This document shows positions 45,375-49,210 of a stretch of DNA of 64,000 bases, piece after piece (the first letter of the stretch is position 1; the number at the start of each line of letters is the position of its first letter). The translations under genes were made by a program, and so were the position numbers. Source of the stretch: Escherichia phage vB_EcoM_SQ17. The notes under the pieces are model-generated. The model was given only the letters and a program-made list of their open reading frames with translations. It ran no database searches and had not been told where the DNA came from. Location of the stretch: sequence record MW882907, one strand, 5' to 3'.

Positions 45375-45845
45375 TTAATCATGTTTCCACACCCCATCGG
45401 TATTTGACCAAAGTCGCTGATTATCTGATCCTCGCCACAGCTTTTTAGTCGGAAGATTTTTCTCATACTTCCCATCAATAATAACATCAACATATTTAAG
45501 CATTTCTAGTTGTTTAATATCTTCAAACTTATATCCTGTCCACAACCAAATGCTTTTATTAGGATAAAGATTTTTTACTGTTTGAACGATGCAATGAACA
45601 ACATCTCGGTTATCAGGATAGAGAGGGTCACCTCCGGTTATAGTCAATCCTTCTATATAATCATTATTCAAGCATTCAATTAATTGTTCTAGTGTCTCTC
45701 CAGTGAATGGAATGCCATTTCTAGCATTCCATGTTGATTTATTATAACACCCTTCGCATTTATGCAAACAACCTGTAACGAAAAGAACGACCCTGCATCC
45801 AGGGCCATTCACAAAATCGCAAGGATAAAATCTATCATAATTCAT
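45375..45845 (-). CDS. nrdG: anaerobic ribonucleotide reductase activating protein (radical SAM)
   Basis: 156 aa; CDFVNGPGCRVVLFVTGCLHKCEGCYN with the CxxxCxxC radical-SAM cluster motif; directly downstream of nrdD. Confidence 0.85.
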   Translation of the reverse strand: MNYDRFYPCDFVNGPGCRVVLFVTGCLHKCEGCYNKSTWNARNGIPFTGETLEQLIECLNNDYIEGLTITGGDPLYPDNRDVVHCIVQTVKNLYPNKSIWLWTGYKFEDIKQLEMLKYVDVIIDGKYEKNLPTKKLWRGSDNQRLWSNTDGVWKHD

Positions 45846-47150
45846 TGGTGTTTAACCCTATGCATGATTTCTTTATTTTTACCGAGATTAAATCCGCGTT
45901 CGTTCGGATTTCCCAAATAACCGCATGTTCTTCTTATAGTATTCATCTTTTTAGGATCACTTTCTCCACAAACTGAACAAACAAATCCGTTTTCAGTAGG
46001 AGTCATTTCATGGGTACTTCCACATGTAAAACATTTATCTACTGGCATATTAACACCAAAATAATCTAAATGTTGTGCAGCATAATCCCACACGGCCTCA
46101 AGACCTTTTAGGTTATTTTTCATATCAGGAAGTTCAACATAAGAAATGTGACCGCCTGTCGCAATGAAATGATATGGGGCTTCGCGAGAAATCTTTTCAA
46201 ACGGAGTAATATTTTCTTCTACTGAAACATGGAAACTATTAGTGTACCAGCCTTTATCAGTAACATCTTTTACACTTCCATATTTTTCGGTATCAAGTTT
46301 ACAGAAGCGATAGCACAGGTTTTCAGCAGGAGTAGAATACAAACTAAAAGCGAATCCGGTTCTTTCAGTCCATTGTTTAAGATGAATATTCATTTTAGTT
46401 AAAATTTCTTGTCCAATATCACGACCGACAAGAATATTCAATTCGTGAATACCAATGTATCCCAAAGACACTGAACTTCTACCGTTTTTAAATAACTCAA
46501 TTATATCGTCATCAGGTTTAAGACGAACACCGAATGCACCTTCTTGGTAAAGAATAGGAGCAACAGTAGCTTTAACACCCTTTAAAGAACTAATTCTGCA
46601 CATCAATGCTTCAAAACACAGATCCATTCGTTCATTGAATAATTCAACAAATTTCTGTTCATTGAATTGTGTTCCAATATAAGAATCTAACGCAATACGA
46701 GGAAGATTCAGTGTTACAACACCAAGATTATTACGTCCATCAAGAATTTCATTACCAGTCGAATCTTTCCATACACTCAAGAAACTACGGCAACCCATTG
46801 GAGAAACAGGAACAGATGAACCAGTGATAGCTTTATTATTCTTAACTGAAATAATATCAGGATACATTCTTTTGCTTGCACACTCTAGAGCAAGCTGCTT
46901 AATATCGTAGTTCGGGTCGTCTTTATAAAGATTGACACCCTCTTCAACGAACATAACAAGTTTAGGGAAAATAGGAGATATCCCATTGCGACCAAGACCT
47001 TTAATACGATTTTTCAGAATTGCTTTTTGAATCATTCGTTCAGTCCAGTCAGTTCCCGTACCAAATGTAATTGTTACAAAAGGCGTTTGTCCATTAGAGC
47101 TGAAAAGTGTATTTACTTCATCATTATATTCAGCATGAGTCGCAAATTCA
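45842..47150 (-). CDS. nrdD: anaerobic ribonucleotide reductase NrdD, exon 2 (3' splice boundary approximate)
   Basis: about 440 aa of class III RNR C-terminal region including the C-terminal zinc site CFTCGSTHEM...CSVCGE and glycyl-radical tail RTCGYLGNP; upstream limit set near the homing endonuclease stop. Confidence 0.7.
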
Positions 47151-47918
47151 TGCCCGTTTATATGAAACAACAAAATTTGGATAGTCCATAGATATGCAAC
47201 GTTCTTTTATAGTGCTAGGATGAAAATTTAGCGCTTTAGCTGCTTCTATATAAGACGTATACTTAATACCGTCAACAACCACATATTCAGGAACTTTATG
47301 AATAGTAGTCTTAATACTCAAAACAAGAGGATGAGTTTCGACTTCACTTTCAGTGCAATTTAAATATTCCGCTGCTTTTTTAAAACTTCTAAAAGTTTTA
47401 TTTTTAAGCTTTATCGATACTTGTTTTTTACTTTTTCGACTATTGATATTATTTTGCACATGTTCCTTAGATCTTCCGTTTTTAGCATAATATTCAGCTA
47501 CAGAAGATTTTATATTGTTTTTATGAGATTCGGATAACACTTTACCCTTATGAGCATCTCTTAATTTTTGAATATGTTCTTCAGTATCCGGATGCTTATA
47601 AAACTTTTTACCGCCTATGGATTTATTTAAACACTTTTTGCTATAAAAATATTTACGTATGACCTCTTCTTCATGTTTTAATGCATCTTTATAACTATCA
47701 AATGTTTTTAAAATTATCCATTTAGTAGGTGTATCAGTTTTTAAGCGTTCATTTATATACTTAGATGACGTTGTGTAAGTTTTCCAGTTTGTGGGCTTGT
47801 TTTTAATTGTTCTAAATTTTTTATAACCGATATAAATGTCACCATTAGAAAACTTAACTAAGTATGTAAATGCGTCTTTATCTTTTATTTTAGTACAACG
47901 TCTTTTTATCCATTTCAT
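47148..47918 (-). CDS. GIY-YIG homing endonuclease encoded within the nrdD group I intron (I-TevII-like)
   Basis: 256 aa; YLVKFSNGDIYIGY GIY-YIG motif; NUMOD3-like basic repeats; ATG preceded by GAGGTGAAACA; T4 has an intron ORF of similar size at this position. Confidence 0.75.
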   Translation of the reverse strand: MKWIKRRCTKIKDKDAFTYLVKFSNGDIYIGYKKFRTIKNKPTNWKTYTTSSKYINERLKTDTPTKWIILKTFDSYKDALKHEEEVIRKYFYSKKCLNKSIGGKKFYKHPDTEEHIQKLRDAHKGKVLSESHKNNIKSSVAEYYAKNGRSKEHVQNNINSRKSKKQVSIKLKNKTFRSFKKAAEYLNCTESEVETHPLVLSIKTTIHKVPEYVVVDGIKYTSYIEAAKALNFHPSTIKERCISMDYPNFVVSYKRA

Positions 47919-48165
47919 TGTTTCACCTCGTATTCATAAGATAATCTTATTTATACAAGATGACTGCTGCATGTCGCCATGCAGATTAGACTATATCTTC
48001 ATCTTTCGATGCCGGCCGTTTCGAATAGCATTAGCTTCTATTCTACACCGCTACATTCATCACGGTTAGTCGTTAGGCATTTAGTTCAAAAGAACATTTA
48101 GCACGGGATTGTCTACTAGAGAGGTTCCCCGTTTAGACCGGTTTTACATGAGCCTGAATTAAATT
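47150..48165 (-). mobile_element. group I self-splicing intron interrupting nrdD (boundaries approximate)
   Basis: nrdD reading frame is split into two ORFs separated by about 1 kb that contains about 240 nt of non-coding structured sequence (47920-48160) plus a homing endonuclease ORF; same arrangement as the T4 nrdD intron. Confidence 0.6.
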
Positions 48166-48704
48166 AACTCATACGCCTGGAATGCATCGTATACGTCTTT
48201 TTCTGTTTTAGATTGGGCGTAATTCAACGCATCAGCGATTTGCCATTTTTCTGCATCTTCAACATGTTTAGCGTATGTGCGTTTAACATAAGGAGAAAGT
48301 ACTTTATCTACATTAGCAAATGTAGTTCCGCCGTACTGGTGTGAAGCAACTTGTGCAGTAATTTGTGCCATAATTGCAGTAGCAACACCAATCGATTTAG
48401 GCGTTTCAATTTGAGCATTACCTAGCTTAAATCCGTTTTCAAGCATTCCTTTTAAATCTACTAAACAACAATTAGTAAATGGAAGAGCAGGGGAATAATC
48501 AATATCATGGAAATGGATAATTCCACTTTCATGTGCTTTCATAATAAAAGACGGGACCATATTTTTGGCAATGTGCTTAGACACAATACCAGCCATAAGG
48601 TCCCGTTGAGTTGGAAAAACACGAGAATCTTTATTAGCATTCTCGTTCAAAAGATCTTTATTAGTTTTATGAATTAATCCTTCAATTTCTTTTTCAATTT
48701 TCAT
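48159..48704 (-). CDS. nrdD: anaerobic ribonucleotide reductase NrdD, exon 1 (5' splice boundary approximate)
   Basis: 181 aa N-terminal segment; in-frame stop at 48159-48161 lies inside the intron; start abuts gene 49 stop. Confidence 0.7.
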   Translation of the reverse strand: MKIEKEIEGLIHKTNKDLLNENANKDSRVFPTQRDLMAGIVSKHIAKNMVPSFIMKAHESGIIHFHDIDYSPALPFTNCCLVDLKGMLENGFKLGNAQIETPKSIGVATAIMAQITAQVASHQYGGTTFANVDKVLSPYVKRTYAKHVEDAEKWQIADALNYAQSKTEKDVYDAFQAYELI

Positions 48705-49174
48705 TTTAAACTCTTTTTAAGCTGCTTTTTGAATGAAGCTATTAATTGTGTTTTGGTATCAGATTCATTATATTCAAATCCTCTTTGAAGCATCTCAGCC
48801 ATCATTTCCTCTTTACCTAGTCTTGAGAACTCTTTAGTTTTGTCTGGAACAAAATTAGGATGGATATTATTATCAGAATAATCTTGTTTCAAATAAGCAA
48901 GAAGAGCTTCAAGCCATTCGAGGTAGTCGACATCACGTCCTTTAAGACCGGAACGGTTGAACTTATGCTTCATTTGACCTTCTGCTGCATTGCACAGATT
49001 ACAGAGTAACCCACGAACTCTACCTGCTTTTGGCCCGTTTAATTCATGGTCGTGGTCAAGATGGTTACCTTGAACATCAGGGTCTAATTCACGGTGGCAA
49101 ATAGGACACTTACCATTCTGTGCATCATAAAATTTTTGTTTTTCTTCTTTGTATAATTTGCCAGATAATAACAT
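48701..49174 (-). CDS. 49: endonuclease VII (Holliday junction resolvase)
   Basis: 157 aa; nearly identical to remembered T4 gp49 (MLLTGKLYKEEKQKFYDAQNGKC..., zinc-binding CxxC pairs). Confidence 0.9.
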   Translation of the reverse strand: MLLSGKLYKEEKQKFYDAQNGKCPICHRELDPDVQGNHLDHDHELNGPKAGRVRGLLCNLCNAAEGQMKHKFNRSGLKGRDVDYLEWLEALLAYLKQDYSDNNIHPNFVPDKTKEFSRLGKEEMMAEMLQRGFEYNESDTKTQLIASFKKQLKKSLK

Positions 49175-49202
49175 AATAAACCCTTACCATATTAGATAAG
49201 GG

Positions 49203-49210
49203 TATTTATA
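49203..49210 (-). promoter_or_regulatory. T4 late promoter TATAAATA upstream of gene 49
   Basis: minus strand TATAAATA about 30 nt upstream of the gene 49 ATG. Confidence 0.45.

Follow-up and report, generated by a model that had tools for sequence, protein, structure and literature searches.

The nrdD gene of Escherichia phage vB_EcoM_SQ17, which encodes the class III ribonucleotide reductase (RNR), is read as two open reading frames with an endonuclease gene between them, and the question is whether this is a gene truly split in two or a single gene interrupted by a spliced and mobile intron. In the window (the whole stretch of 64,000 nucleotides analysed here, from sequence record MW882907) the ORF list places a 181-aa, a 443-aa and a 256-aa ORF on the minus strand, with the sizes given in the original prediction, and the approximately 240 nt of non-coding sequence mentioned there correspond to 48158..47919, a stretch of 240 nt that separates the 181-aa ORF from the endonuclease ORF and houses the predicted ribozyme core. 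The 181-aa ORF extends 8 nt into the intron, where it ends at an in-frame TAA, while the 443-aa ORF begins with 17 codons (47173..47122) that belong to the intron and are read in the frame of exon 2. The segment to which the interruption had been assigned, 47150-48704, covers the intron region, but it takes in all of exon 1 and stops 28 nt short of the intron's 3' end.

Alignment to T4 nrdD with its 1033-nt intron was used to place the boundaries of a predicted group I intron of 1045 nt (48166..47122) that breaks the minus-strand nrdD gene, with UAAUUUAA at its 5' end, AUAUAAUG at its 3' end and a terminal G (omega-G) at 47122. Exon 1 comprises codons 1-179 and the first base of Tyr180, within whose codon the splice falls. 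Joining exon 1 (48704..48167) to exon 2 (47121..45842) yields a 605-aa NrdD, of which 596 of 605 residues are identical to T4 NrdD in the spliced translation. This protein can be aligned over its full length with PDB 1h78 and gap-free across the junction with the intronless 9d3x, and the joined exon DNA forms one unbroken alignment in 765 intronless phage records. The predicted junction consists of GCGUAUGAGU directly followed by AUGAAGUAAAU in the spliced DNA, and reads GAGU/AUGAAG in the ligated exon RNA and QAYE/YEVNTLF in the protein. Comparison of the exon translations with intronless NrdD, which had been suggested as a check, and of the joined exon DNA with intronless records confirms the junction at both the protein and the DNA level, with no gaps and with the 605-aa product. 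The exon 1 ORF matches the N-terminal part of the Pfam NRDD profile (positions 1-141) and the exon 2 ORF its C-terminal part (positions 145-562), the latter containing in addition the Gly_radical domain. Coordinates of all features are collected in the table.

Table. Features of the nrdD locus of the window (positions of the whole stretch) and the evidence for each assignment
Feature	Position	Strand	Details and evidence
nrdD exon 1	48167..48704	-	538 nt; T4 nrdD alignment, spliced translation
nrdD 5' ORF, 181 aa	48704..48159	-	ORF list
P1	48147..48173	-	minimum-free-energy fold, helix table, pair counts
Ribozyme core (predicted)	47967..48141	-	RF00028, folds, pair covariation
P3	48141..48136 with 48017..48012	-	helix table
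P4	48132..48127 with 48108..48103	-	helix table
P5, P6 and P6a	within core 47967..48141	-	folds
P7	48071..48067 with 47993..47989	-	helix table
P7.1	48066..48047	-	helix table
P7.2	48043..48023	-	helix table
P8	48011..48000	-	helix table
P9	47984..47967	-	helix table
P9.1-like hairpin	47923..47963	-	3' arm bears Shine-Dalgarno GAGG (47929..47926)
T4-style late promoter TATAAATA (putative)	47948..47955	-	agrees with T4 late-promoter consensus; endonuclease ATG 30 nt downstream
Homing endonuclease gene (putative)	47148..47918	-	256 aa and TGA stop; 3' of P9
P9.2-like terminal hairpin	47132..47154	-	GGCAUGA / UCAUGCU; folds, by-eye comparison of three
P9.0 3' strand and omega-G	47122..47124	-	AU 47124..47123 pairs with AU 47986..47985 in J7/9; omega-G = 47122
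nrdD 3' ORF, 443 aa	47173..45842	-	ORF list
nrdD exon 2	45842..47121	-	1280 nt including stop codon; opens with AUGAAGUAAAU
nrdG (activase)	45375..45845	-	Pfam Fer4_12 and Radical_SAM; overlaps nrdD stop

The original prediction proposed to search 47920-48160 for a group I core with a covariance model. Such a core was found: the first 200 nt of the intron match the Rfam family Intron_gpI (RF00028; match 48202..47967) at 70.6 bits, where the gathering score is 50. This bit score was obtained on the region alone or with laxer filters (E-value 1.7e-17 on the region and 7e-16 over the whole window), and it is far beyond chance. The RF00028 model aligns P1 and P2 poorly, and P1 is assigned from the fold and from homology with T4, in which this helix is kept. 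In P1, the exon sequence UAUGAGU and the first intron U (48173..48166) pair with GGCUCAUG (48154..48147), which serves as internal guide sequence; exon 1 ends in U48167, which forms with G the U.G wobble found at the 5' splice site. The P1 loop contributes UUCA (48158..48155) to P10, where it pairs with UGAA, nucleotides 2-5 of exon 2 (47120..47117).

When folded separately, the window and T4 sequences gave a common set of helices (P1, P3-P6a, P7.1, P7.2, P8 and P9). An alignment of the window intron with those of T4 nrdD and td, i.e. of three related introns and for a structure derived from one of them, showed 97.8% pairing over 62 pairs in 13 helices from P1 to P10, and in 18 of these pairs both partners had changed; in controls with the partners slid by 1-3 columns only 34-38% were paired and 0-2 pairs were double-changed. 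Compensatory differences between the window and T4 nrdD occur in P3, P6a, P7.1, P7.2, P8 and P9.2, while P7 (GACUA/UAGUC) is invariant among the three introns. At the 3' end, a 7-bp P9.2 hairpin in the same register was obtained from each of the three tails (window, T4 nrdD and td) on folding, with 5 of 7 pairs changed across the three yet still complementary; in the window it spans the endonuclease stop codon and lies directly 5' of the conserved 3' tail UGAAUAUAAUG. Of the P9.0 pairs (AU/AU), two in number, one has a compensatory change relative to T4. The covariation-supported helices from P1 to P10 are consistent with the splice sites placed above. Long-range pairing of the 3' tail is reported for T4 sunY; an RNAduplex search for conserved pairing of this tail with the core found none, the best duplexes differing between T4 and the window, and P9.0, P9.2 and P10 are the only tail pairings that we claim. 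Two additional helices, P7.1 and P7.2, located between P7 and P3', are reportedly what Michel and Westhof in 1990 took to define subgroup IA. Both are present here with compensatory changes, and the T4 record labels the orthologous nrdD intron as group 1A. Judged by its predicted helices, the intron is of subgroup IA architecture, of the IA2 type found in T-even phages.

The 256-aa ORF had been proposed to encode a GIY-YIG endonuclease, and its product was identified as a full-length homolog of I-TevII (144/257 residues identical, 56%, E = 1e-101) with GIY-YIG-type and NUMOD1 domains. The N-terminal match to PF19835 (SegE_GIY-YIG, residues 9-86) is marginal (26.6 bits, cut-off 25), while the NUMOD1 DNA-binding module (PF07453) scores 25.3 bits (cut-off 22.8). 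The motifs FTY...YIG and HEE...LNKS are common to this protein and I-TevII, and it belongs to PHROG 314, annotated as homing endonuclease. These comparisons support its assignment as a putative I-TevII-like GIY-YIG homing endonuclease. The gene starts at nt 249 of the intron (nt 236 in T4), and the ribosome-binding site of its own that had been noted for it is GAGG, 7 nt before the ATG. The putative late promoter TATAAATA, which occurs just 4 times in 64 kb, each time on the minus strand, is positioned as in the T4 intron, within the 5' arm of the P9.1-like hairpin predicted to sequester the ribosome-binding site (-17.3 kcal/mol, z = -5.1; T4 counterpart: -15.3 kcal/mol, z = -5.2). The corresponding mechanism of late promoter and ribosome-binding-site hairpin has been described for T4 (PMC2988022), and for T4 introns it has also been proposed that the homing site recurs upstream of the ORF in an operator-like copy (PMC2988022). 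A candidate for such a copy in the window, CTTATGAATACGAGGTGAA, agreed with the intronless site at 16/20 positions by eye, but was rejected, as pattern searches gave no match at up to 3 mismatches in 20 or up to 6 in 23.

The likeness to the T4 nrdD (sunY) intron with I-TevII, claimed in the original prediction, is borne out by the identical insertion site (after nt 538 of the same host gene, in codon Tyr180). The layout is also the same: a compact 5' core without P2, an ORF located 3' of P9/P9.1, the late promoter and ribosome-binding-site hairpin, and a terminal P9.2 hairpin followed by UGAAYAYAWUG and the omega-G. The two introns are similar in length (1045 nt in the window, 1033 nt in T4), as are their endonucleases (256 and 258 aa); 97% of the intron length aligns, with 66% nucleotide identity, compared with 94-95% in the flanking exons. 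The block from P3 to P7, however, resembles td introns rather than T4 nrdD. The T-even td intron (with I-TevI, or ORF-less, e.g. in HMD-9) has the same IA2 core and a common 3' tail (CUGAAYAUAAUG with P9.2), and in HMD-9 a 71-nt run is identical to nt 30-100 of the window intron (P4-P6a-J6/7-P7). Nonetheless, td is a different host gene and its intron has a P2 helix; the T4 td endonuclease ORF is carried by the P6a loop and not placed 3' of P9, and I-TevI is not closely related to the window endonuclease. According to these sequence comparisons, the window intron is related to the T4 nrdD intron but has diverged from it: it is ordinary in kind, yet belongs to a separate lineage that appears to have spread recently.

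Copies at least 99.2% identical to the window intron were found in 43 phage records from the genera Mosigvirus and Tequatrovirus. Among the carriers only 1-4 positions of the 1045-nt intron differ, whereas the genes flanking the intron are only 84-95% identical. Compared with the window, gene 49 of the carriers has 84% identity in Tequatrovirus and 99% in Mosigvirus, and their nrdD exons have 93-98%. The first exon mismatches are met 8-50 nt upstream of the intron and 23-95 nt downstream of it, and the exon bases adjoining it are common to the intron-bearing alleles, unlike the intronless ones. Near-identical introns with short co-converted exon tracts point to recent homing, and their presence in divergent genomes, with tracts of varied length, suggests that homing occurred repeatedly. 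The endonuclease gene decays in some carriers: it is frameshifted in 236Ecol005PP and F1/FN, and deletion derivatives leave introns of 479 and 345 nt in 215Ecol030PP and BYEP01. These derivatives are analogous to the T4 nrdB intron, a natural endonuclease deletion that left a splicing-competent core (PMC2988022), although the I-TevIII gene deleted there encodes an HNH family enzyme in another host gene, and the window copy is undeleted. In the phage collection the endonucleases form two discrete lineages without intermediates; the T4-type truncated copy of phage U5 was the only sequence from the T-even intron survey of Sandegren and Sjöberg 2004 among the matches. A search of IMG/VR viral contigs with the endonuclease peptide patterns or the exact 35-nt core pattern returned nothing. 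Introns in nrdD of Vequintavirus and Vibrio phages have core sequence in common with the window intron, but they were rejected as the same element, being inserted at other positions of the gene. The window itself contains no tRNA genes and no Rfam families besides the group I intron.

The decay seen in these carriers raises the possibility that the intron splices while its endonuclease is inactive, as a passive relic like T4 nrdB/I-TevIII or an element mobilised in trans by another nuclease. The marginal GIY-YIG score could be taken in the same sense, as could the documented trans-mobilisation of the nrdB intron by mobE (PMC2790892). Of the alternatives this one survives best, but we regard it as improbable: the ORF is intact in the window and its product is 100% identical in approximately 18 listed genomes, dN/dS relative to I-TevII is ~0.25, the expression signals are conserved, and the population pattern described above combines near-identical introns in divergent genomes with co-conversion tracts that are short and varied in length. 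Trans-mobilisation is further disfavored by the ORF list of the window, in which no free-standing endonuclease gene adjoins nrdD, in contrast to T4, where a mobC-type endonuclease is found between nrdD and nrdG.

The ribozyme core is intact in all its helices, J8/7, the guanosine-binding helix P7, omega-G, P9.0 and P10, both nrdD exons are intact, nrdG is kept, and the exons show strong purifying selection relative to T4 (dN 0.009, dS 0.27). These features make it very unlikely that the intron is splicing-defective and nrdD a tolerated pseudogene, even though class III RNR is unneeded in aerobic culture, nrdD being non-essential under such conditions, so that selection for splicing could be weak. 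Least credible of all is a nrdD truly split without RNA splicing, with an endonuclease cassette between two genes whose products assemble: the halves are annotated as separate CDSs in public records and functional split RNR genes are known in phages, as in Aeromonas phage Aeh1, where nrdA is likewise in two ORFs parted by an endonuclease gene, mobE, and the two polypeptides assemble into a functional enzyme (PMC3653736), but Aeh1 nrdA has no ribozyme, whereas the gap in the window holds a complete, covariation-supported group I core, the break lies inside a codon restored by precise excision, exon 2 lacks its own start codon and ribosome-binding site at 47121, a TTG within the endonuclease gene is where the 443-aa ORF first opens, the T4 orthologue is annotated as a joined CDS broken by a group IA intron, and the T4 crystal structure is one continuous 605-aa chain. 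The original prediction had named this split as the outcome that would contradict it.

Taken together, the sequence, the fold, the exact junction, the homology and the population signature of homing indicate that the nrdD interruption is very probably a mobile group IA2 intron, orthologous to the T4 nrdD (sunY) intron in position and layout and carrying an I-TevII-like GIY-YIG homing endonuclease. By homology with T4 we infer that the intron is self-splicing and its endonuclease active, and the same homology guides our view of catalysis, expression timing and cleavage position. Transcription of nrdD would run through the intron, whose first ~200 nt would fold into the ribozyme, with P1 displaying the U.G pair at 48167 and P7 binding guanosine. 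The distant 3' element (P9.2, P9.0, omega-G 47122 and P10) would draw the 3' splice site to the core, and ligation of the exons would produce a single 605-codon frame. In early transcripts the endonuclease's ribosome-binding site would be hidden in the hairpin, while late transcripts, beginning at TATAAATA inside the hairpin, would leave it free. During mixed infection the endonuclease would cut an intronless nrdD near the insertion site, and repair of the cut gene would copy the intron along with a few tens of bases of adjoining exon.

We speculate, with considerable reservation, that the window intron could represent a second and currently more successful nrdD intron lineage, with a possibly altered specificity and a mosaic core. 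Its endonuclease may differ from I-TevII in recognition or cleavage specificity, perhaps being tuned to the intronless alleles found in nature (GCTTATGAATATGAAGTAAATACTCT...), and could be capable of displacing the T4-type intron or keeping it out. The ribozyme core, in turn, could be a natural mosaic resulting from recombination with a td intron, as the identical 71-nt block suggests. If true, this would be a natural case of intron domain shuffling and of two homing elements competing for one site. The known workings of homing elements are not changed by the window intron, which is of the textbook kind, and its importance is mostly one of annotation: in at least 43 public T4-like genomes nrdD is entered as two genes and a "homing endonuclease", with no joined CDS or intron feature for nrdD among the sampled records, and the exact splice sites permit the correct annotation of the 605-aa NrdD. 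To the T4 nrdD intron and I-TevII our analysis adds a second lineage, with clear signs of recent cross-genus spread, natural endonuclease-deletion derivatives and a putative td-mosaic core, which should be useful for studies of the life cycle of homing elements and of endonuclease specificity.

The nrdD gene of the window, which derives from a T4-like phage, is predicted to be interrupted by a group I intron. ORFs of 181, 256 and 443 aa, claimed in the original prediction, were all found at those sizes, the last of them with a glycyl-radical domain (Pfam), and the 240 nt between the 181-aa ORF and the endonuclease ORF are indeed non-coding. The intron boundaries were set by aligning the region to nrdD of bacteriophage T4, which is recorded as a two-piece join around I-TevII, labelled "encoded by group 1A intron in nrdD". 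Exon identity to T4 nrdD is 94-95%, and the interruption falls at the same nucleotide. Exon 1 ends with ...GCGUAUGAGU at 48167 and exon 2 starts with AUGAAGUAAAU at 47121; because the exon ends are fixed by this alignment, the intron encompasses 48166..47122 (1045 nt), with the predicted splice sites defined as 48167/48166 and 47122/47121. The 181-aa ORF overruns exon 1, reading 8 nt of the intron up to a TAA, and the 443-aa ORF starts at a TTG located 52 nt within the intron.

Features of the interrupted nrdD gene and pairings added to the intron folds
Feature	Coordinates	Strand	Evidence or pairing
N-terminal nrdD ORF, 181 aa	48704..48159	minus	Pfam NRDD profile positions 1-141
Endonuclease ORF, 256 aa	47918..47148	minus	ORF list
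C-terminal nrdD ORF, 443 aa	47173..45842	minus	Pfam NRDD positions 145-562
P7 pseudoknot			GACUA/UAGUC
P9.0			J7/9 AU with the AU preceding the terminal G
P10			intron UUCA with exon-2 UGAA

The joined exons form a 605-codon frame with no internal stops, whose product is identical to T4 NrdD at 596 of 605 positions and aligns over residues 1-605 to the T4 NrdD crystal-structure chain 1h78. Alignment to the cellular intronless NrdD of 9d3x crosses the junction without a gap (QAYE/YEVNTLF versus QSLEYEINTLF), and a joined-exon DNA query of 800 nt (400 nt per exon) yielded one continuous alignment in 765 phage records, among them T2 and intronless Mosigvirus phages.

The covariance-model search for a group I core reported a match to the entire Rfam Intron_gpI model at 48202..47967 (minus strand) with 70.6 bits, above the gathering score of 50 (E-value 1.7e-17 for the region, 7e-16 for the whole window). 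A default gathering-threshold scan of all 64 kb gave no matches and missed the intron, while a region-only search or laxer filters recovered the 70.6 bits; a group I intron should not be discounted on a negative default Rfam scan. Independent free-energy folding of the 5' parts of the window and T4 introns produced the same P1, P3, P4, P5, P6, P6a, P7.1, P7.2, P8 and P9, as well as an additional hairpin covering the endonuclease's ribosome-binding site; the P7 pseudoknot, P9.0 and P10 were added by us. With the window intron aligned to its T4 nrdD counterpart and to one ORF-less td intron (only three sequences, mutually related, with the structure derived from one of them), 97.8% of the cells are standard pairs (62 pairs, 13 helices) and 18 pairs exhibit changes on both sides, mostly in P3, P6a, P7.1, P7.2 and P9.0. 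When the 3' partners were slid by 1-3 columns as a control, 34-38% remained paired, with double changes in only 0-2 pairs. The U of a U.G pair directly precedes the 5' splice site and the last intron base is G (47122). P7.1 and P7.2 place the intron in subgroup IA, for which Michel and Westhof in 1990 reportedly used these helices as a criterion. The 3' part of the intron forms a hairpin of 7 bp (47154..47132), corresponding to the helix named P9.2 in td, in which the stop codon of the endonuclease lies and after which comes UGAAUAUAAUG; the hairpin is found in the same register in T4 nrdD and td, where 5 of 7 pairs differ yet are complementary.

The 256-aa product aligns over its full length with T4 I-TevII (56% identity, E = 1e-101), belongs to a PHROG annotated as homing endonuclease, and passes the Pfam cut-offs for NUMOD1 (25.3 vs 22.8) and, marginally, SegE_GIY-YIG (26.6 vs 25). 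Comparison with I-TevII (dN 0.38, dS ~1.5 and saturated, ratio ~0.25) indicates that the ORF is under purifying selection. It has, as predicted, its own ribosome-binding site, a GAGG 7 nt upstream of the ATG, hidden by a hairpin with a folding energy of -17.3 kcal/mol (z = -5.1; T4 counterpart -15.3 kcal/mol, z = -5.2). The T4 late-promoter consensus TATAAATA, which occurs just four times in 64 kb and exclusively on the minus strand, lies at 47955..47948 within the 5' arm of this hairpin. These expression signals mirror those of the T4 nrdD intron. In T4 the promoter-in-hairpin arrangement limits translation of intron endonucleases to late transcripts (PMC2988022); by analogy, we infer that the same may apply to the window endonuclease.

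Gene, site and layout are those of the T4 nrdD intron; however, the latter measures 1033 nt and is only 66% identical in nucleotide sequence. Searching the phage collection at protein level separated the endonucleases into two discrete groups with no intermediates: 44 records share 95.9% identity or more with the window protein, and about 25, including T4 strains, PST, fPS-2, RB59 and a truncated U5 copy, stand at 56%. At synonymous sites, the intron ORF has diverged from T4 (~1.5) to a degree similar to gene 49 across the two genera (1.31), whereas the exons of nrdD lie far closer (0.27). Over 45842..49174, nrdD is unusually homogeneous between genera compared with adjacent gene 49; homing-linked gene conversion is one possible cause.

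The order gene 49 (endonuclease VII) - nrdD - nrdG is the same as in T4, and all large ORFs near nrdD are on the minus strand. Another TATAAATA copy (49203..49210, minus) lies just upstream of gene 49, adjoined by a terminator-like hairpin (49203..49180). The junction between nrdD and nrdG serves as a landing site for differing endonuclease genes, namely mobC in T4, a SegH-like gene in SYGD1 and a NUMOD3-motif ORF in BYEP01; the window has no endonuclease gene there, and nrdG overlaps the nrdD stop (45842..45845).

A 71-nt run (48137..48067, minus; intron nt 30-100), spanning P4-P5-P6-P6a-J6/7-P7, shows no difference from the td intron of Tequatrovirus HMD-9, which lacks an ORF, and a 42-nt section of the run is shared at 100% identity with the td introns found in many T-even phages. 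The P3-to-P7 block matches td in 72/75 columns and T4 nrdD in only 53/75; outside it the window intron bears no greater similarity to td, suggesting that td and nrdD introns recombined in the past. Group I introns with cores 74-85% identical to part of the window's also occur in nrdD of Vibrio phages 1.084.O and F96 and Vequintavirus EPFV3, at other positions and with other ORFs (winged helix-turn-helix or HNH); F96 nrdD is apparently in several pieces, broken by two intron insertions.

The intron recurs in 43 phage records with 99.2-99.9% identity, including Mosigvirus Escherichia phage PNJ-6, the nearest public record at the locus (98.4% over 1.8 kb), and Tequatrovirus phages SYGD1, BCH953P4, pSe_SNUABM_01, Isf-Pm2 and 236Ecol005PP. 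Carriers mismatch the window at 1-4 of 1045 intron positions, while identity is 93-98% in their nrdD exons and, in gene 49, 84% for the Tequatrovirus carriers and 99% for PNJ-6. Moving away from the intron, exon mismatches set in after 8-50 nt on the upstream side and 23-95 nt on the downstream side, with the point varying by phage, and the flanking bases are common to intron-bearing alleles (...CAGGCGTATGAGT/ATGAAGTAAATACACTTTTCAGCTCTAATGG), unlike intronless ones (...CAAGCTTATGAAT/ATGAAGTAAATACTCTCTTTAGTTCAAACGG). Such a footprint would be expected of repeated homing with short co-conversion tracts, a process well documented in T4, for its td and nrdD introns (PMC2988022). 215Ecol030PP (479 nt) and BYEP01 (345 nt) carry natural derivatives with most of the endonuclease gene deleted, in both of which the 5' core of 248 nt and the terminal element at the 3' end persist. 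The T4 nrdB intron, where I-TevIII is deleted, is an analogous case; in carriers 236Ecol005PP and F1/FN the endonuclease ORF is frameshifted.

It is conceivable that the endonuclease of the window copy is inactive, but its reading frame is unbroken, conserved and constrained, and the pattern across the population points to recent activity. That nrdD is truly a split gene without splicing is very unlikely, given the complete ribozyme, the break within a codon and the lack of a start codon at the 5' end of exon 2. The intact core, together with strong purifying selection acting on exons 1 and 2 alike (dN 0.009), contradicts a splicing-dead intron in an nrdD pseudogene.

The original observation of a group I intron with a GIY-YIG endonuclease in nrdD is confirmed, and its interpretation is supported by the ribozyme core, the junction and the I-TevII homology. 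Neither an intron feature nor a joined CDS is annotated in any carrier record sampled, and no published description of this variant was found in the literature searched, which did not reach the 2004 T-even intron survey; a 2010 review lists RB69, JS98 and JS10 without intron endonucleases (PMC2993671). We class the intron as an addition to a well-known kind of element, whose mechanism is not new; it is of value for annotating nrdD correctly and as a second lineage of the I-TevII type that has been spreading recently and whose core is mosaic.
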